From the IMG/VR virus record IMGVR_UViG_3300050821_003452, positions 1-64,000 of that record: 64,000 bases of DNA. One strand, given 5' to 3'. Every line of letters begins with the position of its first letter. Positions within the stretch are counted from its first letter, which is position 1. This DNA comes from a virus. This document shows positions 11,530 through 46,369 of this stretch, piece after piece. The notes beneath the pieces were generated by a model. The model ran no database searches and was not told where the DNA came from. It saw nothing but the letters and a program-made list of their open reading frames with translations. A program made the translations under genes and the position numbers.

Positions 11530-12244
11530 TTGGAATTAAACCTCTCAATTTTTCTTCAGCATCATCATGTTTCTTTGCGGCTTCTTTATGGTTTAACCAC
11601 TCAAATGCCGCCGTAGCCCACAAGTTATTTCCCGTGAAATTATAGTCCTTGCCGGCAGTAATCTTCTCCAGAATTCTGGGCTCCAGAACCACCGGCTCCG
11701 TCATGTTCCAGACGTGCTCCATGAAGCGCAGAGCCCTTCCCATCAATTCATCAGCGTACTCTTTGTCGTAATCCACGATCTCTATTGTGGGCTGTTTGCC
11801 GCCTTGGATGACTGAGAAGGCGCACTGTCTGGTTTGTGTGCATTCCATCTGCCAGTGGCATTGAGGCATATATCTTTGTAGCACAACGTCAAACTTTTCG
11901 TATCCCGAGACGTGCTTGGCTTCGACGGGGCCATTAAGTACAGGATCGAAGCCGTCAAGAGTGGCAGCAGCCCAAAAATAATCAGGATGATTAACCACGG
12001 CGCCACGCCGATCCAGTGTTCTTTGTCGGGTTCGCTCGTACCAATCGAGGTTGAGTTTTTCCGTACACGATCCAAGTTGAACTGCCCAAACGTCATCAAG
12101 ATTTTCCTCTACGAATGCAGGATCGCCACATAGCTCACGCCACAACTGCATGATCTTGGTCTTGTCGCCCGTCATCAGACAGGCAACTTTGCTTGCGGTC
12201 AATTTGCCTTCGCGGGCTAATCTCTGTGCTTCTGTAAGGGCCAA
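11408..12244 (-). CDS. YqaJ/lambda-exonuclease-family nuclease
   Basis: R..KLTAS, AATLDG, VEAKH, Y.PQ..WQM motifs. Confidence 0.9.
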   Translation of the reverse strand: MALTEAQRLAREGKLTASKVACLMTGDKTKIMQLWRELCGDPAFVEENLDDVWAVQLGSCTEKLNLDWYERTRQRTLDRRGAVVNHPDYFWAAATLDGFDPVLNGPVEAKHVSGYEKFDVVLQRYMPQCHWQMECTQTRQCAFSVIQGGKQPTIEIVDYDKEYADELMGRALRFMEHVWNMTEPVVLEPRILEKITAGKDYNFTGNNLWATAAFEWLNHKEAAKKHDDAEEKLRGLIPNDARVCTGYGVVAKRDRALRVSIRAIEDDSGDKKPKRGHK

Positions 12245-21387: not shown

Positions 21388-21651
21388 CTCTTGCGCTTCG
21401 TGGATTTCATCTAGCGTGAAATCAGGTTCAGGTGGCTTTAGTTTGATTATCTCCAGGTCTTCCTCTGGATAAATAAATCCATCATGATGGGGGTGTATCT
21501 CTTCCACATGCGGCCAAATAACGCGACGCCAAGTTCTTTTACTGTTGTTTGGCTTGGTGTCTAATGCCGTTATTCTTCCAGTTTCTCCCTTGGATTGGTG
21601 CAACCAGTGACTTAGATTACCTTTGATTTTTACCAGATCACCTATTTTCAT
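21370..21651 (-). CDS. SH3/KOW-like small protein with C-terminal tag
   Basis: MKIGDLVKI start after GGAGG RBS; PDFTLDEIHEAQELIDGI end. Confidence 0.7.
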   Translation of the reverse strand: MKIGDLVKIKGNLSHWLHQSKGETGRITALDTKPNNSKRTWRRVIWPHVEEIHPHHDGFIYPEEDLEIIKLKPPEPDFTLDEIHEAQELIDGI

Positions 21652-21665
21652 CTTTATCCCTCCAT

Positions 21666-21712
21666 AATTGCTTAACACAGTCCCCCGTAAGGGACTGGCC
21701 TTAAGCAATTCA
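21666..21712 (-). promoter_or_regulatory. Intergenic structured RNA element, copy 1 (lacks alternative hairpin)
   Basis: Transcript: AATTGCTTAA GGC CAGTCCCT-TACG-GGGGACTG TG TTAAGCAATT. Confidence 0.65.
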
Positions 21713-21789
21713 GAATGGCGCCGTGATGTATCCGGCTATGTAGCCAGCGCAGAATAACTCCACGCAGAAAACCAGACGGAAAAATATCA

Positions 21790-22197
21790 TTAATGCACCG
21801 TATGGCCGGCGTGGCCATCCTCTTCGTTATGGTCCGGATCACCGCACTTGCCGAAAGCCGCTTTGGCCAAATCGGAAAGCTCGTCCGGATCGGTTTCGGC
21901 CTGAGCCATACAGGCCAGCATGAAGGGAATATAAGCCTCTTCAGGCACGCCAATGGCTTTCAGCACTTCATGGGATTTATCTACACCCCACTTGGCATGT
22001 TCCCCAAGTTTGTGATGCTTGTGGAAATGCTCGGCCTTTTCATGCAGAAACGGCACGATGCAAAGATATTTTGCAAGAGCCTTTTCAGCATCGTCGCCGG
22101 GGAAAACAGCAAGAAGGTGTTCTTTCTCAAGGACAACACCGTTGACCTTGAATTCCTTCTCGGTTTCCTCGACCTTGATCTTGATCATTCCAAACAT
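21790..22197 (-). CDS. Hypothetical His-rich protein
   Basis: GAGAGGGA RBS. Confidence 0.65.
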   Translation of the reverse strand: MFGMIKIKVEETEKEFKVNGVVLEKEHLLAVFPGDDAEKALAKYLCIVPFLHEKAEHFHKHHKLGEHAKWGVDKSHEVLKAIGVPEEAYIPFMLACMAQAETDPDELSDLAKAAFGKCGDPDHNEEDGHAGHTVH

Positions 22198-22267
22198 GAT
22201 TTCCCTCTCTCGATTGAAGCATAAGCGCTTCGTGCTGCGCTATGGACTAGCGTAGGACGAAAGGCTT
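22198..22267 (-). promoter_or_regulatory. Intergenic structured RNA element, copy 2
   Basis: AAGCCTTTCG TC CTACGCTA-GTCCA-TAGCGCAG CA CGAAGCGCTT AT GCTTC then GAGAGGGAA RBS. Confidence 0.65.
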
Positions 22268-22299
22268 GCTTATATTTACACCCAAATTGGGGAAAATCT

Positions 22300-22857
22300 A
22301 TGTCTAAGACGTGCTCACGATGTTCTCAAACGAAACTACTGACGGAGTTTTATGCCCGTGGATCATGGTGCAGGACTTGCAACAAGACTATATGCAAAGC
22401 GTACTATGAAGCTCGGAAGCGACGGAATGGGAAGCTGGTAAGGCCGCGCAATCCGATCATTAATGGTCTCAAAAATTGTCGCCAGTGTAATACTGTAAAG
22501 CTCATATCAGAATTTTGGAAACACGGTAAATTTCCCGGCGCGTACTGTAAGATTTGCGCTAGTGAGGCAGGTAAGGCGTGGTATAAAGAGAATAAGCGTA
22601 AGGATAAGGATTGGAAACTGCGTCGCACTTACGGCCTCACCATTGATCAGTACGAACAAATATTGGCTCGACAGAATTATAAATGTGCTATTTGCAAAGT
22701 TTCTAATCCGAAAGGTCGGAATGGCTTCAACGTAGATCATTGTCACGAAACTAGTAAAATTCGCGGTTTACTTTGTTCCAATTGTAACATTGGAATAGGA
22801 AATCTTCAACACGACCCGGATATTCTCCGGGCCGCATTGAAGTATCTCGAAGTCTAG
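22300..22857 (+). CDS. Endonuclease VII-like HNH homing endonuclease
   Basis: CxxC zinc motifs; YGLT..QY..IL..Q..KCAIC...VDHCH.T.KIRGLLC..CN..IG; inserted against the operon direction. Confidence 0.9.
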   Translation: MSKTCSRCSQTKLLTEFYARGSWCRTCNKTICKAYYEARKRRNGKLVRPRNPIINGLKNCRQCNTVKLISEFWKHGKFPGAYCKICASEAGKAWYKENKRKDKDWKLRRTYGLTIDQYEQILARQNYKCAICKVSNPKGRNGFNVDHCHETSKIRGLLCSNCNIGIGNLQHDPDILRAALKYLEV

Positions 22858-24020
22858 TAATCAACCGTTCGCCCAAAGGGCGCGCGGAGCTTGTTGTGGG
22901 CAGCGAAGTTCACAAATACGACGGGAAAGGGCGGTTCCTTGCCAAAGGAACCCGTCTCTAAATCTGTGAAAAAGATCATGCCAACTGATCCGGCATATTC
23001 TTCGTTCACAAGCTTCATGAGACTTTCAAAGTGCGTCCCTCCGCCCCCGCGAGGCTTCCATTCAATGACACCCTGCGAGTTGGTTACGACCGAAATTGAC
23101 TTCGGTTCAGTGTCCACGGCAATAAGCGTGGCTTGGTTGATAATATTCTCGTCCAAAACCGCTGACGCCTCTGTCTTCATGGCTTTCAACATATCATCAC
23201 TCACAGAGCCAGATACGTCAAATACCAACAGAAGATTGTAGATATTGTCATCGGCATAACCCGGCATAATCGGGTCCTGCCTACGACGATTTACGCGGGT
23301 CCAAGAACGACTTTCGCGTGATTTGGCATCGCGCGACATATCCCGGATAATATCCCGCCAATTCAGTTTCTCGACTGGCAATAATTCTTCTACCAATCGC
23401 TGAATGTTGGCCGGCATATTGCCGGCCTTCTTGGCCTTGTCAGAGGCGTTTGCTACCGCGCGTGACCAATCCTTGGCTGCCTGATCGGCCTCTTCCTGAT
23501 CTTCCGGAGAGGGGTCTTCCATGCCGCCCGGTTGGTTAGCACCGTTTTCACCATCGCTTTGGCCTTTGCCGCCGCCTTTGCCACCACCACCTTTCTTGCT
23601 TTCCTGTTCTTCCAGAAGCTCATAAATCTCTTCCGCAGCTTTATTAGGATAAAGCCCATCGCCTTTCATTAACTCGGGATGTTGTGGAAAATACTGATGA
23701 ACCAATGGCCTTACTGAAAAGTCAGTGGCTTGGTTCCACTTGTCCTTGTCGCGGGACTTCCTGCGGGGAACATGCGCCAATGCAAGGTGCATGATCACTT
23801 CAAGAATATCGCCCTCAATGTACTGATCATTTTCCTTGACGTATTCCGGATTGAAAAAGATGTTGATGCCGTTAGTCCAGATTGCGGGCCTACGGTCACT
23901 TTCTTCAAGCCGGGCATTGAACAGAAGGGACGCAAAGAAAGGATTGCGCCGCGCGATACGTTCGCGTGCCACCAATACCCGTCGCATTGCATCCGTATAT
24001 TTGGTATTCCAGTTCCACAT
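22854..24020 (-). CDS. VWA-domain protein with peptidase-like N-domain (DUF2201-like)
   Basis: PFFASLL..TNG..IFFNP N-domain; DVSGS MIDAS, GGGGT.F, FFTD. Confidence 0.85.
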   Translation of the reverse strand: MWNWNTKYTDAMRRVLVARERIARRNPFFASLLFNARLEESDRRPAIWTNGINIFFNPEYVKENDQYIEGDILEVIMHLALAHVPRRKSRDKDKWNQATDFSVRPLVHQYFPQHPELMKGDGLYPNKAAEEIYELLEEQESKKGGGGKGGGKGQSDGENGANQPGGMEDPSPEDQEEADQAAKDWSRAVANASDKAKKAGNMPANIQRLVEELLPVEKLNWRDIIRDMSRDAKSRESRSWTRVNRRRQDPIMPGYADDNIYNLLLVFDVSGSVSDDMLKAMKTEASAVLDENIINQATLIAVDTEPKSISVVTNSQGVIEWKPRGGGGTHFESLMKLVNEEYAGSVGMIFFTDLETGSFGKEPPFPVVFVNFAAHNKLRAPFGRTVDY

Positions 24021-24095
24021 GATTTGTTCCCTCTTTATGAAGCATGTCGCTTCGTGCTGCCCTAGATTGCTCTAGGGCAGTGTCGAAACGTCTTA
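24021..24095 (-). promoter_or_regulatory. Intergenic structured RNA element, copy 3
   Basis: TAA GACGTTTCG ACA CTGCCCTAGA-GCAA-TCTAGGGCAG CA CGAAGCGAC AT GCTTC then AGAGGGAA. Confidence 0.75.
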
Positions 24096-25115
24096 CTTCT
24101 TATCAACCGCTTCCTGTACCAAGCTCGCCAAGTCTTTGTTGGACTTGAGACTGGTATCGCGCGCCATGGCTTCGTGTGCGGCCATGGAACGGATATCCGG
24201 AGTAAGCCGCGAAAGATACTCGGCAAACTTGGAGGCGTTCTTGAGGTCGATGTTCTTGGCCACGGCAGACGCCACAACATACTGATAGTGTGGATCAGTC
24301 GGGACCTTGGCCTTGCTCGGATTAGCCAGAATATCGCCCATCTTGGGAAGTCCCGCCGCAAGGTTATTGATGAACGTCATAAACTGACGCGAAAAGCCGT
24401 CACCAAGAATAGCCTGAGCATTGTTCTCAAGAACAGCCTTGGAGCTATCCATTGAGAGGTTTTTCAGGACCTTGTTGAAGCTTTCCAAAGACCTTGGCGT
24501 CGGAAATGCCGGATCAGTCTGCGATACCTTGTGAATATCGTCAGGCCGAAGTGTCAAATACGCGACAAGGCGCGGGTCCCAACCCCAGATTTTCATCTTT
24601 TCGATCAAACCCGGAGCGTCGGGTTCCACACTGACATGCGCCATGCGGTTCTCAAGAGGCTTCAGCATCTTGTTATCGCCGCCGCCGTCAGTCCGGGTAT
24701 TGCTTGCCAGCAAAACGCGGTTTTTGTTGGGCAACGGAAAGCCGCCCAAACCACGATCCAGCACAAGGCTATAAGCCATCTGCTGAAGCTGTACACTCGC
24801 ATGTCCGAACTCGTCATAGAACATCACGTGCATATTGCCGTCTTCCTGCGGAATGAATGCAGGCCGCGTCCAATAAGTCGCACGATTGTCCTTGTCGATA
24901 ATCGGCATGCCAGTGCCATCCACAATATCCTTTGTGGAAAGCCGGGTATCATGCAAGATCGAAGTGCCGTATTCTTTGACTATGGCTGGCAAGACTTCGT
25001 TCTTGATGATAGAAGACTTGCCCACACCAGTCGGGCCATAGATCATTACCGGAACATCGGCAAAGACCAAAGGCAAGACGGTATCTGCAAGCTTGGTTAT
25101 TTTCACCTTAAGCAT
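24093..25115 (-). CDS. MoxR/dynein-related AAA+ ATPase
   Basis: GPTGVGKS, FYDE, ASN...D, PLENR, FPTPRS motifs. Confidence 0.9.
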   Translation of the reverse strand: MLKVKITKLADTVLPLVFADVPVMIYGPTGVGKSSIIKNEVLPAIVKEYGTSILHDTRLSTKDIVDGTGMPIIDKDNRATYWTRPAFIPQEDGNMHVMFYDEFGHASVQLQQMAYSLVLDRGLGGFPLPNKNRVLLASNTRTDGGGDNKMLKPLENRMAHVSVEPDAPGLIEKMKIWGWDPRLVAYLTLRPDDIHKVSQTDPAFPTPRSLESFNKVLKNLSMDSSKAVLENNAQAILGDGFSRQFMTFINNLAAGLPKMGDILANPSKAKVPTDPHYQYVVASAVAKNIDLKNASKFAEYLSRLTPDIRSMAAHEAMARDTSLKSNKDLASLVQEAVDKK

Positions 25116-25199
25116 GTTTGATTTTCCCTCTCGTCTGAGCAACATTGCTCACCAATGCGCTATATGGCTAGTACAGCGCATGGCGTGAACAGTGATTTA
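25116..25199 (-). promoter_or_regulatory. Intergenic structured RNA element, copy 4
   Basis: CACTGTTCAC GCC ATGCGCTGTA-loop-TATAGCGCAT TG GTGAGCAATG TTGCTCA then GAGAGGGAA. Confidence 0.7.
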
Positions 25200-25427
25200 C
25201 GCATACCTGCTATGCGTTATTGAGGTATCAAGACTGTATCCATGAGACCACACTTTTAGCGTTGTGCCGTCCGTAAAGGTAAGGATAATTGTCTCGTTAT
25301 TCCCGTTGGTATTGTTGGCAGTGTCCATTGCCATGTATTCGGCATGAGAAATGGTCTTGCCAACAAGCTCAAAGATATTCACTGGCATCTTCCACCATCG
25401 AAGTGATTTCCTTGTCCCGCAAATCAA
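25197..25427 (-). CDS. Hypothetical protein
   Basis: ELVGKTI...IILTFTDGT motif; likely start at MPVN. Confidence 0.55.
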   Translation of the reverse strand: MICGTRKSLRWWKMPVNIFELVGKTISHAEYMAMDTANNTNGNNETIILTFTDGTTLKVWSHGYSLDTSITHSRYA

Positions 25428-26325
25428 GACTTGCGAGCGTGGCCATGACTTCGTTAGCTACTTCCAGAGCTTTTGGCTTGCCATAAGGCGCAACAGGATC
25501 GTTGAACCTTTCAGGCCTGCGGCGCCAGTAGTCTGCGCTGAAATAAGTCAACCGGCCTAAATCAGTGATGACTTTCTTGATTTGCTTGTTCTCAGTCAGA
25601 TTAAGCTTCTCAAGAATTTTTTGAGTATCCCTGATATTATCGATCAAGCTATCATGAATTTTGCCAAGTAATTCGCCCGTAGAAGGCTCTACTTTGACGT
25701 TTTCAAGCTTGTCAATAAAGGCCTGCACGACTTCTCTTGCGCGCCTTACCATGTCATGAGAAGCATCAACTAGCCGTTCTTCGATTTCAGCCTCAATGGA
25801 AGCTTTCGCTTCGCTTGCTGCCTCTTTCGAAATTTCAGCCATCAAATGCCCACTATCAGGCATAGGCCAATAACTAACCTTTGCCGTGAATAGCGCCTTA
25901 GCCTCGTCTTGGCTAGGATATTGCCGGCTATCGAATAACGGTCCTAAATCCCTTTCACTGGCTGCAACAAGTGCAGGATAGTAAAAGATATATTCGGAGC
26001 GCGCGTCTTCTAAATCTTTCAGCGCGGCATTTACGTCATAGCGAAAAGCCTCCAGTGTTTTCACTGGAATCAATCGCATGTTTTCATTTCCCCATGGCAG
26101 GGTATAACGGTAGACGACTTCGCGAACGCGCTGGCTTGCCGCTAATATCCTCTTGACCGTTTTATGATTGCGGTCGATCAGATAAGTAGAGGCTTGCGCA
26201 CGCTTGTCAGATACATGATATGTATTCTGAACCAACGTTGAAGCTTTACTATTCTTGCGTTGGCCAAGCAATCCGCCGTTGGAAATGGTGACAGATACCA
26301 GCATTGCTTTCTTAGTGATATCCAT
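25369..26325 (-). CDS. DUF3150-like helical protein associated with AAA/VWA modules
   Basis: TLPW....RLIP, LG.LF....YP, HDSLIDN...L..LNLT pattern; next to MoxR-VWA pair. Confidence 0.6.
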   Translation of the reverse strand: MDITKKAMLVSVTISNGGLLGQRKNSKASTLVQNTYHVSDKRAQASTYLIDRNHKTVKRILAASQRVREVVYRYTLPWGNENMRLIPVKTLEAFRYDVNAALKDLEDARSEYIFYYPALVAASERDLGPLFDSRQYPSQDEAKALFTAKVSYWPMPDSGHLMAEISKEAASEAKASIEAEIEERLVDASHDMVRRAREVVQAFIDKLENVKVEPSTGELLGKIHDSLIDNIRDTQKILEKLNLTENKQIKKVITDLGRLTYFSADYWRRRPERFNDPVAPYGKPKALEVANEVMATLASLDLRDKEITSMVEDASEYL

Positions 26326-26395
26326 TTGATCCCTCTCTCTATTAGAGCTTAATGCTCTATGCTGCACTGTTGCCAGTGCAGAGGTAGAACATTCA
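26326..26395 (-). promoter_or_regulatory. Intergenic structured RNA element, copy 5
   Basis: TGA ATGTTCTA CCT CTGCACTG-GCAA-CAGTGCAG CA TAGAGCATT AA GCTCTA then AGAGAGGGA. Confidence 0.75.
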
Positions 26396-26611
26396 GGAGT
26401 TAAGCCAATCCTTGGCCGCTTTCATGGCTTCTTTATAATTGACTACGGCAATGGTATTGCCGGCTATCGCCGTAGGATAAATGGGTTTCCCGTTTTCGTC
26501 GCGGAAATAGATTTCCCAACCTTGACCATAATGGCGAACGCCAACGTGGCCTTTTGATCCCTCAAAACTATACCACTGGTTGGCAAGTTTCTTGCGTGCT
26601 ATCTTATTCAT
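26393..26611 (-). CDS. Hypothetical early protein
   Basis: Flanked by elements 5 and 6; strong RBS. Confidence 0.7.
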   Translation of the reverse strand: MNKIARKKLANQWYSFEGSKGHVGVRHYGQGWEIYFRDENGKPIYPTAIAGNTIAVVNYKEAMKAAKDWLNS

Positions 26612-26679
26612 GTGCTTCCCTCTCTATTGAAGCTTAATGCTTCTCACTACCGCTCGTAAGCGGTAGGACAGAAACATTA
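26612..26679 (-). promoter_or_regulatory. Intergenic structured RNA element, copy 6
   Basis: TAATGTTTCT GTC CTACCGCT-TACG-AGCGGTAG TG AGAAGCATTA A GCTTC then AGAGAGGGAA. Confidence 0.75.
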
Positions 26680-26979
26680 GAGCGTGGCAGTTTTGCCTTT
26701 ACTGCCGTAGAATTGCAGACTTTCTTGATCCCGCAGAATTGTCTCATATTCGACGGTATCAATTCCCGTTGCCGCCAAAAACCGGAACGTATCGAAATTG
26801 TCGTTTGTGCTTCGTAGATAGTCTGCAAACAAACGGGCAATTTCGAGGCGTTTATCAGGGCTAACGCGCGAGATAATGCCGGCGATATATGCAAAGTGTC
26901 GATGTTGCATAAATCCGGATTTTATCACTCTTGCGCTAACCCTGTCCTTGGCTAGTGCCGATTTAGCTGATAACGGCAT
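26677..26979 (-). CDS. Hypothetical early protein
   Basis: QHRHFAYIA...FADYLRSTN.NFD..RFL.A motif typical of small phage early proteins. Confidence 0.6.
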   Translation of the reverse strand: MPLSAKSALAKDRVSARVIKSGFMQHRHFAYIAGIISRVSPDKRLEIARLFADYLRSTNDNFDTFRFLAATGIDTVEYETILRDQESLQFYGSKGKTATL

Positions 26980-27169
26980 TTTTCTTTGCCTTTCTATAAG
27001 CCACAATGGCTGCATAAATCTTTTGCTCAGGTTCATGCGTCATTTCAGCGATGTTCTTGACGGTTTCATGTAACGCAAGGGCAATGCCTTTGTTTCTGCC
27101 AAGCCTAAACGAGGCATAAACGCCAAGGCCATAAACTAGGCCGATCATGAGATAATTTTCTATTGCCAT
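26963..27169 (-). CDS. Small membrane-anchored protein
   Basis: AGAGGGAA RBS; N-terminal TM. Confidence 0.6.
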   Translation of the reverse strand: MAIENYLMIGLVYGLGVYASFRLGRNKGIALALHETVKNIAEMTHEPEQKIYAAIVAYRKAKKNAVIS

Positions 27170-27177
27170 GGTTCCCT

Positions 27178-27384
27178 CTATTCGTCGTTTGGAGTTTCGA
27201 TTAAATCTGGCAAATCGGGCGGAATAGCTGCGGCAATTTCAAGTTTGCCTAACAGCCAGTCCCAATATCCAAGGCGCGTATTGTCCTCAGATACGTCCCG
27301 CTGCCAGTCGGCAACCGGAAATTTATCGTTCTCTTTCCAGATGCCGCCGTGTTCGTCTGCCAGCAAATAAGCTTCCGGGGACAT
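27178..27384 (-). CDS. Hypothetical early protein
   Basis: FPVADWQ.DV....TRLGYWDW motif. Confidence 0.65.
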   Translation of the reverse strand: MSPEAYLLADEHGGIWKENDKFPVADWQRDVSEDNTRLGYWDWLLGKLEIAAAIPPDLPDLIETPNDE

Positions 27385-27641
27385 TATTTTGCCCTCTTGT
27401 TATCTGCCCGATAACCTTTTCGGTTATAAGCATATGAAGCTTTCGGCGCAGTGAAAGTCACAACCTTAGGCGTAGGCTGCCCGACATGCTGGCGCGCGTC
27501 TTTAAGTGTCTTATGCGCGACAATCTGCGAGGCATCGCCAATGCTGCTTTCCCGCACGGTTTGATACCGCACTGTTTCGCCGCGAATATTGGAAACCTTT
27601 TGGATTGCATGACCGTTGTAACGGTCGATTGTTCTTAACAT
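27384..27641 (-). CDS. Hypothetical early protein
   Basis: Downstream of element 7; strong RBS. Confidence 0.65.
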   Translation of the reverse strand: MLRTIDRYNGHAIQKVSNIRGETVRYQTVRESSIGDASQIVAHKTLKDARQHVGQPTPKVVTFTAPKASYAYNRKGYRADNKRAK

Positions 27642-27718
27642 GGTTATTCCCTCTCTCTATGGTGAAGCAAAATGCTTCGCAATGTAGTAGGATTAGCTAC
27701 TACATGCCGAAACATTCA
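27642..27718 (-). promoter_or_regulatory. Intergenic structured RNA element, copy 7
   Basis: TGA ATGTTTCG GC ATGTAGTAG-CTAATC-CTACTACAT TG CGAAGCATT TT GCTTC then GAGAGGGAA. Confidence 0.75.
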
Positions 27719-28108
27719 AGCGTTGGCAAATTCAATCCAGTCCGATACATTGGGCGCGTATTCGTGATGATAGTCGAAATTGAAATTATCTAATTCCGCC
27801 TCAGGAATAAGATAATCTGCGATATTATCACGCCAAGCTATTTCGTAATCATCCCATTTGCGAGAGATTAAATATTCCAGATGCCTGTTATTGTCCCAAG
27901 CCTCATTCCATGTTCGGTCCCTCCATCCGCCGCGCTTGATAACCATCATTTCCGAATAAACCATGCTGGCATTATTTGCCCAGTTTCGGGAATACGGATT
28001 GCCAACCATAGGCAAGGGATGCTTGTATTTGCCAAGCCGTGATGGCATTGTCAGGCCGGTTTTGAATTTATACGGCCAAGCTTGAAAGCCTGCTTTCTTC
28101 TTTGCCAT
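27716..28108 (-). CDS. Hypothetical early protein
   Basis: Start MAKKK after GAGAGGGAA RBS. Confidence 0.65.
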   Translation of the reverse strand: MAKKKAGFQAWPYKFKTGLTMPSRLGKYKHPLPMVGNPYSRNWANNASMVYSEMMVIKRGGWRDRTWNEAWDNNRHLEYLISRKWDDYEIAWRDNIADYLIPEAELDNFNFDYHHEYAPNVSDWIEFANA

Positions 28109-28179
28109 GATATTTTCCCTCTCAATGAAGCTTGAGTGCTTCCCAATGCGGCGCGAACGCCGCACGGCGGAAACATTCA
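28109..28179 (-). promoter_or_regulatory. Intergenic structured RNA element, copy 8
   Basis: TGAATGTTTCC GCC GTGCGGCG-TTCG-CGCCGCAT TG GGAAGCACTCA AGCTTC then GAGAGGGAA. Confidence 0.75.
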
Positions 28180-28287
28180 TTTGGCTTTGTAAGTGATTTG
28201 CACATTTTGACCGATAAGCCAGTGTCCAATTCGCAAAAATTGGACCCCTAGCCAAATACGGTAATTGCGCTTAAGCCAGATATTCAT
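28177..28287 (-). CDS. 36-aa peptide MNIWLKRNYRIWLGVQFLRIGHWLIGQNVQITYKAK
   Basis: ATGA-coupled to the upstream gene; its TGA is the first base triplet of element 8. Confidence 0.55.
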   Translation of the reverse strand: MNIWLKRNYRIWLGVQFLRIGHWLIGQNVQITYKAK

Positions 28288-28454
28288 GGGCGCATAATTT
28301 CGAAGTGCCGATAACCTTCGCGCCAGCGCCGTGCTTTCCAAGTGAGTGGATTGTACGGATTGGCGTGAATTGAATATCCCTTGCCGGCCATAACGAAACC
28401 TGTTTCGAAAGCTTCGTCGCGACCTGCGATGGCTGTTGCTAGACTGTAGATCAT
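28284..28454 (-). CDS. Small protein with NPY...W.EGY motif (RMF-like pattern)
   Basis: AFETG..AG......NPY.......W.EGY. Confidence 0.55.
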   Translation of the reverse strand: MIYSLATAIAGRDEAFETGFVMAGKGYSIHANPYNPLTWKARRWREGYRHFEIMRP

Positions 28455-28529
28455 GATATTTTCCCTCTCGATATAGAGCACAATGCTCTAGACTGTGCTG
28501 GAATAACCAGCACAGGGTTAGAACATTTA
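28455..28529 (-). promoter_or_regulatory. Intergenic structured RNA element, copy 9
   Basis: TAA ATGTTCTA ACC CTGTGCTGG-TTATT-CCAGCACAG TC TAGAGCATT G TGCTCTA then GAGAGGGAA. Confidence 0.75.
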
Positions 28530-28593
28530 TCGCCGTTTATGCTTGGCAAATAACGACTGGGAGGCGAAAAACCTGAAAACATATTTCATGGTT

Positions 28594-28815
28594 TTATGCC
28601 CAATGGTCGATATTAGTGACCCACATATTGCGCGGCGAAGTCTCGCCCTTGCGGCGATATAACTTGACGTTATATGGCCGGCCGTCATCGTGGAAAAATT
28701 CGAAGATATCGAATGTATTCACCGATTTCGGGATAGGACCATGCAACGGGACAAGCGGCATGCTCCAATCGGTATTTGCGGGGCGATCCTGATCATATTC
28801 GCTTTGCTCTGACAT
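28594..28815 (-). CDS. Hypothetical early protein
   Basis: AGAGGGAA RBS. Confidence 0.6.
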   Translation of the reverse strand: MSEQSEYDQDRPANTDWSMPLVPLHGPIPKSVNTFDIFEFFHDDGRPYNVKLYRRKGETSPRNMWVTNIDHWA

Positions 28816-28887
28816 GAATATTTCCCTCTATTTAGAGCGTCCTAAATGGACTAACCCGCTAGGTGTTCTAATACCTAGCGGAATAAA

Positions 28888-29163
28888 TTAAGCAGCAACC
28901 ATTTCGCGATAATTCGCGGCGGTTTTGAACGCTTGTGCCGTGGCGCGCATGTAATTTTTGTACACACTCGGCATAACTAGTTCCGCAATCTGCCAGTGAT
29001 AGTCGGCATAATGCGCAACGCGTTCTTGGTAGGCTTCCCAAGCTGGAATGCGGATGCTTTCATAAACATCCTGTTGAGCGGGCGAAAGCAAATCGGCGGC
29101 CAACTCGCCCCAATTTACTTCTGCCAAGTCATCCAGCGCCAAGGCTTCAGAAAGTGTAAGCAT
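28888..29163 (-). CDS. Hypothetical early protein (first gene of leftward operon)
   Basis: AGAGGGAA RBS. Confidence 0.65.
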   Translation of the reverse strand: MLTLSEALALDDLAEVNWGELAADLLSPAQQDVYESIRIPAWEAYQERVAHYADYHWQIAELVMPSVYKNYMRATAQAFKTAANYREMVAA

Positions 29164-29921
29164 GGAATGTTCCCTCTATTGATTGACCGTAAATGGTCTA
29201 ACAGCCGTCGAGGGATAGCCTTTCAACCCTAGAAAGCCTTGTGGGCGATCAGGCGGAATAGGCTATCCCCCTAGGCCAAACGTAAGAAAACCTCCCAGCG
29301 GGCTTTGTAAGCCGTTTGAGGGGCATTCTAGAAAGGGAAAGGGTGCAGTCTTTAAGACTGCTATCATGCTAAGATGCAATGCTTTGATTTTTATCCCCTA
29401 ATCAACACTCTCGACCGTTCACGGCTTGCTAGGGTTTATTCGTGGAATTACCAAATGCGCGCGATGGCGTTCTTTTGGATTTGCCCGATACCTACTGATT
29501 AGAGGGGATAGCGCGGTTTTTCCCTTAGGTTACCCTCTGATTGCGTCCCCGCGCTGTTTCCGGACCTTGATCCGGGCTTTGGGTTGGCTGGCACTGTAAG
29601 GTGCCTCATACTCTCGCCTAAGCTAACTGTCACCGTTGGCTTGCCGTCTTATGATCCTAGAGCGCTCCGTAGTCGGGAAGCACGTTAACGGTTTCTAGCT
29701 TGGCAATGGAACCGGGCAATTTATGAAGTCTTGCCAAGACTTGGCTAGGGCTTGATCGGCCTAGCGAGTGAAGTGGGTTGGTATGTGATCTCCTAGTGAA
29801 TTAAACTAAGGCAAGACATACTCTCTTGCCAGCCATTGAGAAGTCATGGAAATGCATGGCTGCTATGCAAAAACGCATAACCTGCTATAATCGACGCGTC
29901 GAATATGGAGTGGGCAGGGAC

Positions 29922-30173
29922 ATGAATATCACGGTTGATATTGGGCAAATCCTTATGGGAATTGCACAATTGGTTACGGTTGGATTATTGGTTCGCAACA
30001 TGAAAGCCGGCAGAAGGCGCGACAAGGCAATCGAGGAAATACATCTTGCTACTAACAGCATGAAAGACGCGCTGGTGTCGGCCACAGAAAAGGAAAGCTT
30101 CGCGCGTGGCGTCAGGTCTGGCGAGTTGTCATCGATGAATATCAACCATCGGAAGGCTGATGATAAAGGGTAA
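29922..30173 (+). CDS. Small membrane protein
   Basis: MNITVDIGQILMG TM followed by IEEIHLATNSMKDALV coiled region. Confidence 0.5.
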   Translation: MNITVDIGQILMGIAQLVTVGLLVRNMKAGRRRDKAIEEIHLATNSMKDALVSATEKESFARGVRSGELSSMNINHRKADDKG

Positions 30174-31034
30174 TATAATTGCGTGATGGCATCCCGCGCT
30201 AAGATGCTTCGCAATGCACAATGACAAGTATGTTTACACTGTCAAGATTACTCTATTACCGTAGGTATCGCAACTGCGAACCTGATATACTCAATTCCGG
30301 ATATGGCTCTGGGATCGAATAGGATGACCAGCGATAAGCGATAATATCCCCGCTAGGTAACCAACCCGAAACCGCAGCCATATTGCTAGGCCTTCTAATT
30401 GAATAATATTAGGGCCATTCCGGTCATGATCATGCACCCAACGCATAACTCTGTATACTAGAGCTATGCATATAACGCGGGACAAGATAAACCAAAGACT
30501 TAACCAAACCTATGCAATATCCGCATAGCTTAGAACCAATGAACGATTATGCACCTGCAACATTCATGTGACGAATACCAATAGCTGATATACGAATGAT
30601 AAATGAAGGCAATCGTTAGGGAAAACTGTCTTGCCGCTCTCGCCTACTGTGAAACCCATGTTGGTGTATCAGCTATTTGATGTTGCGACTACCGCAACGT
30701 GGCTACCCCTCTACTGGGCCACCGCAAACGATAATCATTTGCATCTGATGATTGTGGTGTATCGTCAGCAAACATCATGCCAGACACCTACGCATTACAT
30801 GCATTGCACCTATGCGCCTATAGCATGGCTCATGGTGCGTTGCGGCAGGAAAAGGGACCCGGACCCGGTAGGACCCCCGTAATAGAGCGGGCCACCTGTT
30901 GGCCGTCTTTTCTGTCCCATCTTTTCTGTAATAAAATCCTAGAGAGACCCACTTTGGGATTGTTGATTTCGGCTTCGCTGTTTGTGATCTCCTGATATCC
31001 CAATTTGGGCATAATTTAGTGGTAGAGACCCAAG

Positions 31035-32838: not shown

Positions 32839-33383
32839 TGATTTGGTATTTTTTATACTTTATCTGGGCATTTACTGGCGTATCCATAATAGGTGCGCTT
32901 GTGGTCATTCGTTATAATATCTGCATGACAAGAATGATGAATGTAAAAAGCGACTTGTGGAGCGGGTATGATTGTAATTTTTGTGCACTGGGCGAAAACT
33001 GTCATCATCTCAAGACAGAACTAAGACATATCGAATGGGATCAAGTCCACAAGTGTATGTTCTGGGGCAGGAACTATCGTCGGCATCTTGAGCCACTGAC
33101 CCAGTGTGCATTGAAAGGTATTTATCCAGAAGAAAATGATTGTCCTATATTCTGGAATTCCTACAAGAATATTTACCCTCTTCTGCAAGAAAAGCAGCGA
33201 CGGCAGGTTCTTGCCAATCTTACAGGCTGGAACCAACCACAGGTGATGTTTACGCATGAACTTGAATGTCTTGGTTTCAATGTCTGGGTTTTTGATAGTA
33301 AAAATAACTCTACTAATGCCGGCGCAGAAGAATATCTTGAGGCCATCAAGGCGCAGGAAATTGCAGAGCAAATGGGACTATGA
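32835..33383 (+). CDS. Membrane-anchored protein with C-terminal tag
   Basis: N-terminal TM; GAEEYLEAIKAQEIAEQM end. Confidence 0.65.
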   Translation: MMIWYFLYFIWAFTGVSIIGALVVIRYNICMTRMMNVKSDLWSGYDCNFCALGENCHHLKTELRHIEWDQVHKCMFWGRNYRRHLEPLTQCALKGIYPEENDCPIFWNSYKNIYPLLQEKQRRQVLANLTGWNQPQVMFTHELECLGFNVWVFDSKNNSTNAGAEEYLEAIKAQEIAEQMGL

Positions 33384-33886
33384 AACGCATCCTGATATGC
33401 GGCAGCAGGGAATTTTCCAATTGGGATATATTCTGGAATGCTCTACATGAGATCGCTTGGTGTTATTTTGCTAGAGGGCCGCTGGATAATCAGGGTAATT
33501 TTACCTATGCGGTGACTGTCATCTGCGGCGGCGCAAAGGGTGCTGATACGCTTGCGATGGAATGGGCGGCAATCGAGAACGTCAATCTGGAAATCTATCT
33601 GGCTGAGTGGGACAAATTCGGCAAGTCTGCCGGCTATCGCCGCAACAAGAGAATGCTGGATGAAGGCAAGCCTGATATTGTAATTGCTTTCCCCGGTGGC
33701 ATCGGGACAAAGATGATGGTGGATATCGCCAGACTGGCCAACGTGAAGATAATTAAGGTAAATGTCACTCCTGCCGGATCGCACTATGTAATAAGCGAGG
33801 ACACCGCAGGCAGCCTAGACCCCGGTGCCGAAGAGTACGAGCAAATTATGGAAGCGATAGATTTAGTGGACAAAATGTCTCCATAA
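33380..33886 (+). CDS. SLOG/YspA-like (DUF2493-type) protein with appended C-terminal tag
   Basis: RILICGSR, ICGGAKGAD..A.EWA, W...GKSAG.RRN.RML, VIAFPGG.GT..M; then GAEEYEQIMEAIDLV. Confidence 0.85.
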   Translation: MKRILICGSREFSNWDIFWNALHEIAWCYFARGPLDNQGNFTYAVTVICGGAKGADTLAMEWAAIENVNLEIYLAEWDKFGKSAGYRRNKRMLDEGKPDIVIAFPGGIGTKMMVDIARLANVKIIKVNVTPAGSHYVISEDTAGSLDPGAEEYEQIMEAIDLVDKMSP

Positions 33887-35534: not shown

Positions 35535-35975
35535 ATGGGCGTTCTAGAAGAGCTTCACGACGAACACAAAGCCCGCCAAGAACGCATCGCCAAGGCGGCA
35601 TTCAAGACAGTCGCCCTCCCACCTAAACCACTAACCATCACAAGCGAAGACCTGCCATTTGCCAGTTTTGATATTATTCTCAATGAGATATGTGCATATT
35701 TCGGAACTAGGGTAGAAGATATCCTTTCCTCCCGCCGCCAAGCCGATCTTGCCAAAAAACGCGCCATGCTGGCCTACATGACTTATCTGCTGACGCCTTT
35801 ATCTAACCCTCAAATTGCCATAAAAATGAACCGAGACCCCACCAGCATAGGTTACGCTATCAACAGGGTCAGAAATAACCTTAGCATGCACACCGAGACC
35901 ATCGATATACTGGAAGCCAAGATCGTCCCGCTGCTGGAAGAAAAAACCCAGCGGGTCAAGAAAAGAGATAGATAG
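35535..35975 (+). CDS. DnaA domain-IV-like HTH protein
   Basis: I..EIC.YFG....DILS.RR...LA..R.M..Y....LT.LS.PQI...MNRDPTSI.YA. Confidence 0.8.
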   Translation: MGVLEELHDEHKARQERIAKAAFKTVALPPKPLTITSEDLPFASFDIILNEICAYFGTRVEDILSSRRQADLAKKRAMLAYMTYLLTPLSNPQIAIKMNRDPTSIGYAINRVRNNLSMHTETIDILEAKIVPLLEEKTQRVKKRDR

Positions 35976-36837: not shown

Positions 36838-37306
36838 TCATACCAGACCCAAAATTGTCAAAGATACTTCTCCACTCTCCAACAATAGGCAGACGATAGG
36901 TCTGCGCATCAAATGGCTTCGCGCCCAGCAGAAGCCATACATGACACAAACGCAACTGGCACAATTGGCCAAGATTTCTCAGTATAGTGTAGCGCATCTG
37001 GAGCTTGGTCGGGGAACAGATTTTAGAATTAGCACGCTGCGGAAGATAGCCAACGCCTTGGGTTGCGAAGTCTACATCAACATAAAGTCGAGACCATCGA
37101 GGGCTGAAGGGGAGTGTATGGTTCCAAGTCTTGAGTTGCCGCGCCCTGTAAGACCGAAGACCAAAAGCACGGCGAGAGGCCGGTGGCTGGCCGCAAAATT
37201 CCAACGTTCTTTTCTGAAAAAGGATCACCCGCTCGAACGGTTTCAAGAACGTGTAGACTTTTACGCAGCGAAGCGTTTGGCGCGCGAGGCCGAGAAGGAC
37301 GAGTAG
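36824..37306 (+). CDS. XRE-family HTH regulator
   Basis: IG.RIK.LR....MTQ.QLA....ISQ..VA.LE.G......STL.KIA.ALG. Confidence 0.85.
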   Translation: MSEPSHTRPKIVKDTSPLSNNRQTIGLRIKWLRAQQKPYMTQTQLAQLAKISQYSVAHLELGRGTDFRISTLRKIANALGCEVYINIKSRPSRAEGECMVPSLELPRPVRPKTKSTARGRWLAAKFQRSFLKKDHPLERFQERVDFYAAKRLAREAEKDE

Positions 37307-38114
37307 AGTACCAAACATCCTTGCAGGCCGCGATCATCTGGCCAAATTCGACCGGCTCCATGCTGAAAGCAGCATCTGACCCGCCAATGGCGCGATCAAT
37401 AATGAAGTGCTTCTCGATTATAGAGGCCCCAAAGGATACCGCGCCGCAAGCAGTACCAATGCCAAGAGTATGATCACTAAAGCCAACCTCATGACGGCCT
37501 CCAAGTAAACTTTTCAGGGGTCCTAATGCCGGCAAATTGGTGCCTGCTGGGTCAGCAGGGTAGTCCGATACGCAATGCAGTAGTGCCAGATTGGACACTG
37601 ACGAGAGACTGCCGGCATTATAGGCATTGATGGCGTCGATGATTTCTCGGGAAGTGGCCATGCCTGTAGATATAATTACAGGAAGGCCTGTGCTTGCTGC
37701 GTAGCGTATAAGGGGCGTGTCTATTAACTCGAAACTACTAATCTTTAAAGCTATACTATCCAGACTTGAGACTAAATCGACACCAGAGAAGTCAAATACA
37801 GATGAAAATAGCGGTATATTCTTGGTCTTGGCGTATTTGAATAGCTCCCGAACCATGTCGGGAGGCGTTTCTGCTTCTTTATACAGATCAAATAGCCTTT
37901 TTCCCTTCCACAGACCGCTCTCCAATACATAACCATCGTTTGCACAGAGCTTTTCTGCTGTATAACACTGGATTTTGATGGCATCAGCGCCTACGTCCAT
38001 GGCTGCGTCCATGGTTTCGCATGCCGTCTTGACGCTACCGCCATGGTTGCTCGAAATTTCTGCCACTACATAGGGCAAATAGTCAGGACCGATCTCTCGA
38101 CTGCCTATTTTCAT
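37077..38114 (-). CDS. pseI: Pseudaminic acid/N-acylneuraminate synthase (NeuB/PseI family)
   Basis: VAEISSNHGG, GADAIKIQ, KISSFE, IISTGMA, LLHCVS.YPA, GFSDHTLG, IIEKHF; C-terminal SAF domain. Confidence 0.9.
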   Translation of the reverse strand: MKIGSREIGPDYLPYVVAEISSNHGGSVKTACETMDAAMDVGADAIKIQCYTAEKLCANDGYVLESGLWKGKRLFDLYKEAETPPDMVRELFKYAKTKNIPLFSSVFDFSGVDLVSSLDSIALKISSFELIDTPLIRYAASTGLPVIISTGMATSREIIDAINAYNAGSLSSVSNLALLHCVSDYPADPAGTNLPALGPLKSLLGGRHEVGFSDHTLGIGTACGAVSFGASIIEKHFIIDRAIGGSDAAFSMEPVEFGQMIAACKDVWYSTRPSRPRAPNASLRKSLHVLETVRAGDPFSEKNVGILRPATGLSPCFWSSVLQGAATQDLEPYTPLQPSMVSTLC

Positions 38115-38284
38115 TTTTCTAACTCACCCAGAAGCTTTGAAATCTTCTTATCGGCCTTACGGATGTTCCTGAGAACCATTTTAGTTCTAGTTGGAGCGCA
38201 ATTAATGGCGATTTCCAATATTTTCATCCATAGGTCATTGTTTCTAGCCCTAATTTCCTTGATCTTATATAGTTTTTTTCTCAT
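38111..38284 (-). CDS. 57-aa helical protein within sugar cluster (below ORF-track cutoff)
   Basis: MRKKLYKIKEIRARNNDLWMKILEIAINCAP...; ATGA-coupled on both sides. Confidence 0.65.
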   Translation of the reverse strand: MRKKLYKIKEIRARNNDLWMKILEIAINCAPTRTKMVLRNIRKADKKISKLLGELEK

Positions 38285-39360
38285 AGGGCATCTCTCAACT
38301 TGCTGACCATGGTGTTGATCTCTTCATCGGTTGGATCGAAAGCACATACCTCGAATAATACCATGCGATCTTCTACGTCTTCGACCGCAGGAAGCCAGAT
38401 TTGGCGCGACTTGAAGGCTTTCAATTCATAGAGCGGTCTCAAATAGCCGGCCCTGAATGGCTCAGGTATTGGTTTTCTTGGTTTGGTTCTTAATTGCGCT
38501 CCCCAGACGTAGTAACTATGGGTACATCCTTGTCTGATGGAAGGTGGTATAAGAACATCATTGGGCGGAATTAAGTCGGTGATCTTCTGAGCCAGAGCCA
38601 TCCTGCCGGCGATAATCTCTGGCGCTTTCTTAAGCTGCTCAATGGCCATAGCGGCAGTTATCTCCGTCATGCGCAGATTAAGGCCGGTTATGCCCCCGCG
38701 CATTTCGCCATGGTTCATGGCCTCTCTGAGCTTGGTATCAAGTGTATTACTTGCTGTGACGACTATTCCTCCCTCGCCAACCTGAAGATGCTTGTGGACG
38801 TTAAGGGAGAATACCCCCATATGGCCAATCGTGCCCGCATAGCGACCCTGCTCTTGAGCAAAAATCGACTGAGCATTGTCCTCAATGAGATAAACTCCAT
38901 GGTCATCACATATGGACCGCAATTCGTGAAGATGTGCGGCGTGGCCGAAAAGATTTGTGACGATCACTGCCTTGGTCTTTCGAGTAATCGAATTAGCCAC
39001 GTCCACGGGATCAAGCGTGTAGGTCTCTCTCTCGATATCGGCCCAGACCAGCGTGGCGCCAAGTACCTTGGGTGCTGCCGCTGTAGCAGACATAGTATAT
39101 GGCGAGACAATGACTTCATCGCCGGGACCAACCTCGATAGCCATACAGGCCGCAAGCAGCCCAGACGTGGCGCTATTAACGGCAACGGCATGTTTGATAT
39201 CGAAGGCTTTCTCCCAGCCTAACTCAAGTTCAGTTATGGCCCTTCCACCAGTTGGGTGTGAGCCGATATATCCAGAGAGCGGATAACCCTCAATAATATG
39301 ATCAGCCGCGCCACGCTCTGCATTCCCGATTGTATTGAAGCTCTTCATTATAGTTCTCAT
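38281..39360 (-). CDS. DegT/DnrJ/EryC1/StrS aminotransferase (PseC-like)
   Basis: VNSATSGL, IEDNAQS, FSLNVHKHLQVGEGG, GLNLRMTE. Confidence 0.9.
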   Translation of the reverse strand: MRTIMKSFNTIGNAERGAADHIIEGYPLSGYIGSHPTGGRAITELELGWEKAFDIKHAVAVNSATSGLLAACMAIEVGPGDEVIVSPYTMSATAAAPKVLGATLVWADIERETYTLDPVDVANSITRKTKAVIVTNLFGHAAHLHELRSICDDHGVYLIEDNAQSIFAQEQGRYAGTIGHMGVFSLNVHKHLQVGEGGIVVTASNTLDTKLREAMNHGEMRGGITGLNLRMTEITAAMAIEQLKKAPEIIAGRMALAQKITDLIPPNDVLIPPSIRQGCTHSYYVWGAQLRTKPRKPIPEPFRAGYLRPLYELKAFKSRQIWLPAVEDVEDRMVLFEVCAFDPTDEEINTMVSKLRDAL

Positions 39361-39493
39361 GTTTCAGGAAATTGGCTCTAGCATCCTGCATTGTTTTGCC
39401 ACTACCAAGACAGATGCCATAACGAAATCCGCAATACCAAATCTTGGTTTCTTCATCTTGGATGAAAACATATTTCGGCAGGAATTTAATCAT
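39302..39493 (-). CDS. Small hypothetical protein
   Basis: Coupled to the pseB stop; SGKT..DA..N pattern. Confidence 0.45.
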   Translation of the reverse strand: MIKFLPKYVFIQDEETKIWYCGFRYGICLGSGKTMQDARANFLKHENYNEELQYNRECRAWRG

Positions 39494-40413
39494 AGCGTAT
39501 CCCTTATCTCTTCCACTGAAAGAAAGCGCTCATTAGTATCGGATGAATATCTCATGCCGGGCTTGGTGTTATTCGTTGTATCCGGATTAAGGATATACCT
39601 ATCCCAGCTTTCGAGGGCCATATGGCTTTCATCGTCTGTGATCAGCGTCTCATGCAGCTTTTCTCCGGCCCGAATGCCGATCATGGAGTGATTACCGCCC
39701 GGGTCAATCGCCTCTACCAAGTCCATGATATGGACAGAGGGTATCTTGGGAACGAAAATCTCGCGGCCCTTCATCATGCTCTCTGAAGAAAGAACAAAGT
39801 CCACCGCCTCGTCCAGCGTCATCCAGAACCGTGTCATGCGCTGGTCGGTTATCGTGAGAGGTAGACCCCGAGCATGTAGGGATTTGAATAGGGGGACCAC
39901 ACTACCGCGACTGCCCACCACATTGCCGTACCGCACAACGCTGAACTGACACCGCCCAGCAGCCAGATTATTAGCGGCCACCATGATCTTTTCGGCTGCA
40001 AGCTTTGTCGCCCCATAGAGGTTAAGCGGGCTGACAGCCTTGTCGGTGGAAAGTGCGACAACTCGGCTAACACCAGTCGCCATCGCTGCCCTGCATACAT
40101 TTTCTGCCCCATGAATGTTGGTCATCACCGCTTCGAATGGATTATATTCGCAAGTCGGCACGATCTTCAGAGCCGCCGCGTGGACTACAAGATCGGCTCC
40201 ATACATGGCCATCTCAAGGCGCTTACGATCTCTTACGTCTCCTATGAAAAATCTCATGGCTGGATGATCAAAGTGATGCGCCATGGCCTCCTGAAGCTGC
40301 TCTCCGCGAGAATATATGATTATCTTGGCCGGTTCCATAGGAAGAACCTTGCGCACGAAGGCATTGCCGAAGGAGCCGCTGCCTCCGGTGATCAGGATAG
40401 TTTTACCTTTCAT
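39490..40413 (-). CDS. pseB: UDP-N-acetylglucosamine 4,6-dehydratase (inverting)
   Basis: ITGGSGSFG, FFIGDVRD, HAAALKIVP..EYNP, ALSTDKA, YGATK, VRYGNVVGSRGSV, MTRFW, GIRAGEKLHE. Confidence 0.92.
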   Translation of the reverse strand: MKGKTILITGGSGSFGNAFVRKVLPMEPAKIIIYSRGEQLQEAMAHHFDHPAMRFFIGDVRDRKRLEMAMYGADLVVHAAALKIVPTCEYNPFEAVMTNIHGAENVCRAAMATGVSRVVALSTDKAVSPLNLYGATKLAAEKIMVAANNLAAGRCQFSVVRYGNVVGSRGSVVPLFKSLHARGLPLTITDQRMTRFWMTLDEAVDFVLSSESMMKGREIFVPKIPSVHIMDLVEAIDPGGNHSMIGIRAGEKLHETLITDDESHMALESWDRYILNPDTTNNTKPGMRYSSDTNERFLSVEEIRDTL

Positions 40414-46281: not shown

Positions 46282-46369
46282 TGGCGGGGAGAGTAGGATT
46301 TGAACCCACGGAATCTTGCGGTTCTCTCGTTTTCAGGACGAGCGCGATAAGCCTCTCTGCCATCTCCCC
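46282..46369 (-). tRNA. tRNA-Ser(UGA), C at position 33
   Basis: GGGGAGA acceptor; CTCGT-CCTGAAA-ACGAG anticodon arm; long variable arm; GTGGG-TTCAAAT-CCTAC T-arm; GCCA end. Confidence 0.88.

Follow-up and report, generated by a model that had tools for sequence, protein, structure and literature searches.

The stretch of DNA analysed here, which we call the window, comprises the first 64 kb of a 76,589-bp (76.6-kb) IMG/VR virus record, IMGVR_UViG_3300050821_003452, obtained from a soil metagenome. Among public sequencing runs a single DNA run of a soil metagenome, probably the source of this DNA, was found, and no RNA run was listed. On the minus strand, running from 29.3 down to 21.6 kb, lies a series of small same-strand genes, and between these genes a hairpin element of approx. 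75 nt is repeated. All copies of the element are situated between minus-strand open reading frames (ORFs), where they span the distance from the stop codon of one gene to the ribosome binding site (RBS) of the next. Some neighbouring genes of the operon are joined by TAATG or ATGA overlaps and have no element between them. The operon also contains a fixed trio of genes (minus strand, 22854-26325), which encode a DUF3150-like protein of 318 aa, a MoxR-type ATPase and a VWA protein.

A covariance model (R1) was built from six of the window copies, and three copies were left out as a test. The model recovered the left-out copies at 25113-25196, 22195-22269 and 21649-21712 with scores of 45.7, 38.6 and 32 bits. 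With the filters off, exactly nine matches with E<1e-6 were obtained between 12 and 47 kb, all of them on the minus strand and within 21649-28530; the rest of the 64-kb window gave no further copies and neither did the part of the record from 60 to 76.6 kb. The same nine places scored only 13-16 bits on the plus strand. The initial annotation of this DNA had listed nine minus-strand copies, and we concluded that all of them are real and lie where they had been placed.

Copy 1 (28452-28530) reads from a TAA stop codon through the main hairpin and the RBS to an ATG, scores 79.6 bits and carries a second hairpin of 7 bp, UAGAGCA/UGCUCUA. It is followed by copy 2 (28106-28180; 80.2 bits), in which a TGA at the stem base closes a 119-codon open frame, and by copy 3 (27639-27719; 68.4 bits), whose stem base also carries a TGA. 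Copy 4 (26609-26681) scores 77.5 bits, has a predicted folding energy of -28.6 kcal/mol and was used as the anatomy reference. Copy 5 (26323-26396; 70.4 bits) has a UAGAGC/GCUCUA variant of the second hairpin. Copy 6 (25113-25196), positioned 5' of the MoxR-type ATPase gene, has a UGAGCA/UGCUCA variant. Between the ATPase and VWA genes lies copy 7 (24018-24095; 74 bits), with the TAA of a 351-codon frame at its stem base. The two lowest-scoring copies are less complete: copy 8 (22195-22269) has a degenerate 5' strand and no upstream stop codon left, and copy 9 (21649-21712) consists of the main hairpin only, with a C-G pair replacing an otherwise common wobble.

Copy 8 adjoins a gene on the opposite strand. 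This free-standing endonuclease VII/HNH-like gene (22300-22857, plus strand; PHROG matches) is inserted between the VWA gene and copy 8, and a 17-bp hairpin with a T-rich tail (22804-22842) lies between the convergent VWA and endonuclease genes. In relatives, unlike in the window, the element comes directly after the stop codon of the VWA gene.

Two further junctions near the head of the operon had been annotated as divergent copies of the element. Here only the RBS part matched the covariance model (16.4 bits for 28813-28892 and 12.5 bits for 29161-29272), and in both the large and the small hairpin do not overlap. The junction at 28813-28892 (minus strand) has a different, 9-bp hairpin at 28881-28856, a separate small hairpin GUCC..GGAC at 28851-28839 and then the RBS. 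At the operon head (29161-29272, minus strand) a large hairpin at 29271-29210, with a predicted folding energy of -42.7 kcal/mol, is followed by a separate small hairpin GACC..GGUC at 29198-29185 and then by the RBS. Adjacent to the operon head, approx. 1.8 kb of little coding potential (29200-31030) separates the leftward operon from genes that run rightward from near 31035. This stretch, probably a divergent control region, contains a TTGACA at approx. 30245 and a CGAAGCAUC half-site near 30215.

The anatomy of the element was found as the initial annotation had described it. The lower stem consists of 10 bp, typically AAUGUUUCG / CGAAGCAUU, with a U.G wobble at one fixed pair in 35 of 40 copies from close relatives and in 77 of 87 copies overall. 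Above it lies an asymmetric internal loop, mostly of 3 nt versus 2 nt (ACA/CA, GUC/UG or GC(A)/UG), and then an upper stem of 8-10 bp, which retains CUG/CAG as its three basal pairs, while each copy has its own set of top five pairs. The terminal loop is frequently UUCG, UACG or GCAA, or it is longer. After the hairpin, the complement of the lower-stem 3' strand follows at a distance of 3-12 nt, and thereafter an A-rich spacer, AGAGGGAA and the ATG. In the reference copy 4 the TAA occupies 26679-26677, the lower-stem 5' strand 26679-26670, the upper hairpin 26666-26647 and the lower-stem 3' strand 26644-26635; the complement GCUUC lies at 26633-26629, the Shine-Dalgarno (SD) sequence GAGGG at 26622-26618 and the ATG at 26611-26609. 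Conservation goes beyond pairing, as the AGC of the lower-stem 3' strand is retained and the loop letters are of few types; free variation is confined to the terminal loop and the five topmost pairs.

To a large extent the sequence changes between copies preserve the pairing. In 40 copies from five close phages, 95.1% of the cells of the main hairpin were standard pairs, compared with 35-47% when the partners were slid by 1-3 columns, and 15 of the 18 pairs had changed on both sides (221 cells). We regard the slid controls as a fairer comparison than shuffles; the copies are related. Counted over 87 distinct copies, the pairs comprised 1372 Watson-Crick, 108 G.U and 40 A.C pairs, and 26 of the 40 A.C mismatches were at a single position, where the partner is the A of a UGA stop codon. 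The asymmetry of the scores between the strands, the excess of G.U over A.C and the fixed U.G wobble together indicate that the sense-strand RNA is the structure in question. The covariation check thus gave a strand-specific RNA structure with strong covariation. No Rfam family, self-cleaving ribozymes included, matched the region at gathering thresholds and nothing relevant was found there at E<=10; in the whole window the only matches at gathering thresholds were two tRNA genes at 45.3 and 46.3 kb. The analysis confirmed that the element represents a sizeable, uncatalogued RNA family supported by covariation.

In eight of the nine window copies the lower-stem 3' strand is closely followed by its complement, in the variants GAAGC..GCUUC, UAGAGC..GCUCUA and UGAGCA..UGCUCA; copy 9 has none. 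The second hairpin that had been proposed for eight copies, mutually exclusive with the main one, was therefore present, and it also proved to be conserved and covarying. Among the 72 distinct copies for which the available sequence reached far enough downstream, a 3' strand with GAAGC was followed by GCUUC in 49 of 55 cases and one with GAGC by GCUC in 14 of 16, and the two types were never crossed (Fisher p approx. 3e-14, for copies that are not independent). The letters beside the core follow as well, UA-GAGC occurring with GCUC-UA and U-GAGC with GCUC-A. A MAFFT alignment fitted to no structure showed 99.4% pairing in the 5-bp second helix, compared with 32-45% when slid, and two of the five pairs of this helix covaried with zero one-sided changes. 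The loops of the second hairpin measure 3-12 nt. Since both pairings covary, the middle strand can pair either upstream (10 bp, strongly favoured) or downstream (5-7 bp), and both states are under selection.

The stop codon is closely tied to the base of the main hairpin. Of 87 copies, 75 had a stop codon, closing an open frame of at least 40 codons, at -7 to +6 relative to the base that opens the lower stem; in 55 of the 87 it stood at -1/0 and hence formed part of the stem. In the window, the stop codon ended a long open frame 0-5 nt from the stem base in seven of the eight copies tested, copy 9 being left out. The placement claimed by the initial annotation accordingly holds for these seven and fails for copy 8, where the link was lost at the endonuclease insertion. 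At copy 9 a hydrophobic mini-ORF of 26 codons (21710-21791, minus strand), noticed by eye, overlaps the gene before it through a TAATG at its start and terminates on a TGA at the stem base. Translational bypassing of the T4 gene 60 type was considered and rejected, because take-off and landing codons mismatched where copies were inspected by eye, and no downstream gene lacks an SD and an ATG of its own.

A stop codon inside a bistable stem suggests a switch driven by translation termination. A ribosome arriving at the stem-base stop would melt the lower stem, and the refolding would promote initiation at the next gene, which would amount to serial coupling along the operon. The 10-bp lower stem is similar in length to the mRNA that a terminating ribosome covers 3' of its A site, and the internal loop would mark the boundary; the position of the stop codons of real ORFs and the mutual exclusion of two folds that both covary fit the same picture. 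In its broadest form such a ribosome-actuated switch would operate at every junction, with a transient state that loads a ribosome or licenses or blocks a cut, and cassette expression would be relayed by translation. We know of no description of a modular, portable translational coupling device of this strand-exchange type. According to the initial annotation, the RBS would be freed by the refolding. When the partition function was calculated for 39 copies, the mean unpaired fraction of the SD was 0.43 in the intact element, 0.52 with the 5' strand blocked and 0.56 after a notional cut. A few copies changed strongly, such as 24018-24095 with an increase from 0.24 to 0.96, and many remained unchanged between the states. 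As the RBS is mostly open in every state, the RBS-freeing part of the proposal is weak. Sequestration of the SD by the downstream complement was also considered and set aside, the predicted effect being small.

The second helix was present in 31 of the 32 copies in which the stop is displaced or absent, compared with 47 of the 55 with the stop in the stem, so that melting by a terminating ribosome, the trigger suggested earlier, is not needed to explain it. At the two divergent junctions the hairpins do not overlap, and some neighbours in the operon are coupled by plain TAATG or ATGA overlaps without any element. We consider a termination-driven switch rather unlikely for these reasons. The retention of the second helix in copies without a stop at the stem base, together with the non-overlapping hairpins of the divergent junctions, indicates that the second hairpin is wanted for itself. 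We therefore concluded that it is wanted just upstream of the RBS, regardless of any triggering by ribosomes.

The operon's ATPase gene led to four related IMG/VR phages with 60-76% amino-acid identity, each of which has many copies on the gene strand. When the whole records of these four and of one further relative found by pattern search were scanned, each contained 6-10 copies (E<=1e-4) on one strand within one zone of 5-8 kb. A search with the exact pattern of the commonest subtype gave 26 stretches in more than 20 viral contigs. In these stretches the G+C content reached up to 0.66 and the RBS differed, yet the hairpin was kept and the downstream complement was usually kept as well. The same pattern occurred in two Bradyrhizobium genomes and in one Bradyrhizobium metagenome-assembled genome. 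In Bradyrhizobium sp. SRL28 and B. elkanii WSM2783 (L037 and L039), 3-5 hairpin copies were found within approx. 3 kb of large chromosomal contigs. Mimicry of an RNase III site of the host was considered as well; among the 150 of approx. 980 candidates scored, the matches in the two genomes formed a single local cluster each and did not belong to host genes. These clusters are probably prophage remnants. They hint at the host range of the clade and are no proof of the host of the phage studied here.

The gene trio was found in every related phage, with a deviating gene order in the distant contigs L009 and L019, and it co-occurs with the element even in lineages that are only 23-32% identical. 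Among seven phages the trio stays fixed while the cassettes E, D, J, I, K, L, M and N shift in order and position, and the shifting cassettes are mostly bounded by elements. A comparison of contigs L017 and L020 showed homology blocks that start or end at elements or within approx. 50 nt of them; one of the contigs has an extra element-bounded cassette, and one segment lies at a different place in each. This comparative gene order supports the idea, raised in the initial annotation, of the element as a recombination junction. The elements are joints at which single-gene cassettes are shuffled between relatives. The phage carries a Red-like recombination pair further down the operon, an ERF-family annealing protein and a YqaJ-like exonuclease (10651-12244, minus strand), and the conserved modules of 45-75 bp could offer it the homology for exchanging single-gene cassettes at the DNA level.

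These observations would also suit an element that is mainly a DNA-level recombination module, a mobile regulatory cassette resembling the PeSLs (promoter early stem-loops) of T4-like phages, with the hairpin as a by-product or a weak attenuator. The cassettes are ORFans, that is, orphan genes, and PeSLs likewise run from the stop codon to the next ATG, with the SD included (PMC2839356). The compensatory changes, together with a variable top that interrupts the homology, argue on the other hand that selection acts on RNA structure and not on sequence identity, and the strand asymmetry and the fixed wobble point to RNA structure too. Moreover, neither a sigma-70-like promoter nor a U-tract was present in any copy. 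We regard it as unlikely that recombination is the main function. Such a role is compatible with RNA processing and not opposed to it, and the most economical reading is that the cassette shuffling is a DNA-level consequence of a processing signal. An integron attC site was tried as well and rejected, since the genome has no tyrosine recombinase and the stem letters GTTTCG / CGAAGC misfit the R/L box GTTRRRY.

The reading that we favour, with a probability of roughly 0.4, is an RNA processing and stabiliser signal of the RNase III type, in which the second hairpin caps the new 5' end. In what follows we infer cleavage, the enzyme and the effect on stability. An endoribonuclease specific for double strands, with the RNase III of the host as the obvious candidate, would cut the operon transcript in the internal loop or close to it. 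The upstream cistron would retain the upper hairpin as a 3' cap against exonucleases; a terminal hairpin is the usual 3' protection of a message. On the downstream side, pairing of the freed lower-stem 3' strand with its complement would give the new 5'-monophosphate end a hairpin of 5-7 bp, which may shield the downstream cistron from 5'-end-dependent decay. Each small gene would in this way receive its own stable mRNA. Bacterial mRNAs are shielded from 5'-end-dependent attack by RNase E when a stem-loop with few unpaired bases stands at their 5' terminus, and this protection matters most for 5'-monophosphate ends such as RNase III leaves. For a notional cut placed on the loop's 3' side, the RNA downstream of it was predicted to fold into a hairpin with a median energy of -7.1 kcal/mol (-6 to -8), which lay at most 3 unpaired nt from the new 5' end in 72 of 76 copies. 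Cutting and capping also explain what a termination switch does not, namely the succession of a large hairpin and a small hairpin before the RBS at the divergent junctions.

Several points weigh against this proposal. No RNase III domain was found in the phage by a search that gave matches in 10 of 14 control genomes, and as there is no phage RNase III gene the choice of enzyme is a guess. In several copies the upper stem, at only 8 bp, falls short of the 9-10 bp seen at the T7 sites. The elements occur in a single operon and do not punctuate all long transcripts. A pure processing model does not call for a stop codon placed within the stem, where it stands (at -1/0) in 55 of 87 copies, and the conserved loop letters could equally be read by another protein.

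This last point leads to a site that is bound or cut by a protein of the phage itself, either a dedicated endoribonuclease or a regulator of translation or stability, which would read the loop, the U.G wobble and the CUG/CAG base. It would account for conservation that exceeds the needs of pairing (the invariant AGC of the 3' strand, the U.G in 77 of 87 copies, the few loop types), for the restriction of the element to one operon in every genome and for its travelling with the DUF3150-like/MoxR ATPase/VWA trio even at 23-32% identity. The search for such a protein gave no candidate: RNA-binding and RNase domains were not found among the 33 proteins scanned, out of approx. 100 ORFs in the genome. 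The 318-aa neighbour is helical (predicted model with a mean local distance difference test score, pLDDT, of 77) and had no informative structural match in the PDB; its relatives in cultured phages, all of them distant cyanophages, are annotated only as DUF3150. We consider a dedicated phage protein doubtful.

If the cut-and-cap reading is true, the element is a compact natural module, consisting of stop codon, cut, 3' cap, 5' cap and RBS, through which whatever gene is inserted yields a stable message of its own, a function for which synthetic biology uses ribozyme or Csy4 insulators. The module would also account for the ability of a clade of soil phages, probably rhizobial ones, to swap orphan genes without breaking their expression. 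With approx. 90 distinct copies the family is large enough to define a new RNA motif, and it would offer a clean test of whether a 5' hairpin that arises by refolding after cleavage protects mRNA.

A megablast of the region against cultured phages returned no match, and there is no close cultured phage. The small ORFs around the trio have no known domains, save for one weak, sub-threshold match of a 56-aa ORF (28284-28454, minus strand) to ribosome modulation factor (E 0.004; 17.5 bits compared with a curated cut-off of 27.9). Among the ORFs scanned, no DNA polymerase or RNA polymerase was found. Outside the operon, the plus strand encodes a YAcAr/SLOG-family protein (33380-33886) and a protein with the C-terminal helix-turn-helix of DnaA (35535-35975). 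A cluster for a nonulosonic acid of the pseudaminic/legionaminic type (37077-44788, minus strand) comprises a NeuB/PseI-like synthase, a DegT aminotransferase, a PseB-like dehydratase, a Gfo/Idh/MocA oxidoreductase, an S-adenosylmethionine (SAM) methyltransferase and a cytidylyltransferase fused to a class-III aminotransferase. The tRNA genes, also on the minus strand, are Ile(TAT) and Ser(TGA), at 45262-45336 and 46282-46369.

Among known systems, the hairpin promoters of phage N4 raise the question whether the element could be a transcription signal. The GAAGC/GCUUC stem of the second hairpin is identical to the 5-bp stem of the N4 early promoter P2 (N4 559-571) and, as in N4, where the gene concerned is an early one, lies only a few bases ahead of a small gene's start. 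The MoxR ATPase of the trio is N4 gp24-like, and the stretch from ATTAAGCTTCA to the RBS loosely resembles, by eye, a T3 promoter. N4 promoter hairpins require the virion RNA polymerase (vRNAP). By tblastn no homologue of N4 vRNAP or RNAPII was found, and among 20 N4 proteins compared with the phage only the gp24 ATPase had a homologue, so the phage is not N4-like. The two N4 promoter hairpins compared have loops of 3 nt, whereas the loops here vary between 3 and 12 nt; furthermore, the stem letters covary with the main hairpin and those of a promoter would stay fixed. Given the loop lengths and the covarying stem we treated the identity with the P2 stem as a coincidence, and an N4-type hairpin promoter was rejected. 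A T7/T3-like promoter was rejected because its letters covary; a T7-type RNA polymerase domain was not found either, in a search that also matched none of the control genomes. No copy contains a promoter-like site, which excluded a sigma-70 promoter inside the element. The initial annotation had named plain intrinsic terminators as one case that would overturn its proposal; the sequence after both hairpins is A-rich with no U run, and none of the hairpins was called terminator-like. Taken together, a transcription signal of any of these kinds, terminator or attenuator included, appears highly improbable.

Closer parallels are found among the processing sites of other phages. In the early mRNAs of the Bacillus phages SP82 and SPO1, the RNase III of the host reportedly cuts repeated, sequence-related intergenic hairpins, each at the same relative position (work ascribed to Panganiban and Whiteley, 1983). 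These sites share with the present element that related hairpins recur between genes; the host clade and the sequence differ. To our knowledge, no second alternative hairpin has been reported for them.

The PeSLs resemble the element in being concentrated in a plastic ORFan region, where they are the joints of modular gene shuffling (PMC2839356, PMC4122927), and in being repeats that stretch from stop codon to ATG. Their defining parts are a sigma-70 consensus promoter, AT-rich in its upstream part, and a stem-loop that acts as a terminator (PMC2839356, PMC4122927). Here, in contrast, promoter-like site and U-tract are lacking and only approx. 25 nt separate the hairpin from the ATG. The structure of our element is furthermore bipartite, strand-specific and bistable.

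The parallel to the early RNase III sites of T7, drawn in the initial annotation, was borne out by the architecture of the five sites folded (R0.3, R0.5, R1, R1.1 and R1.3). Each of their positions, which we take to be 890, 1468, 3138, 5887 and 6448, falls on the 3' side of an asymmetric loop; above it stands an upper stem of 9-10 bp that ends in a tetraloop, and the lower stem beneath it is imperfect. In both systems repeated hairpins lie between same-strand cistrons of one polycistronic phage operon; approx. two helical turns (approx. 20 bp) are broken by a small asymmetric loop, here as 10 bp, a 3x2 loop and 8-10 bp; and the stem base and loop are conserved, the top is variable and stable tetraloops occur. 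The T7 sites turn a precursor of approx. 7 kb into mono- and dicistronic mRNAs, and R1.1 is cut at a single bond (PMC4858673). There is no sequence similarity between the two systems, and cleavage of the present element is putative. The T7 internal loop measures 1-2 x 3-4 nt as opposed to 3x2 here, and the T7 hairpins start 10-30 nt past the stop codon, which here is built into the stem. The T7 folds show no second hairpin, whereas here the 3' strand of the lower stem also takes part in a second hairpin, and it is this covarying second fold that sets the element apart.

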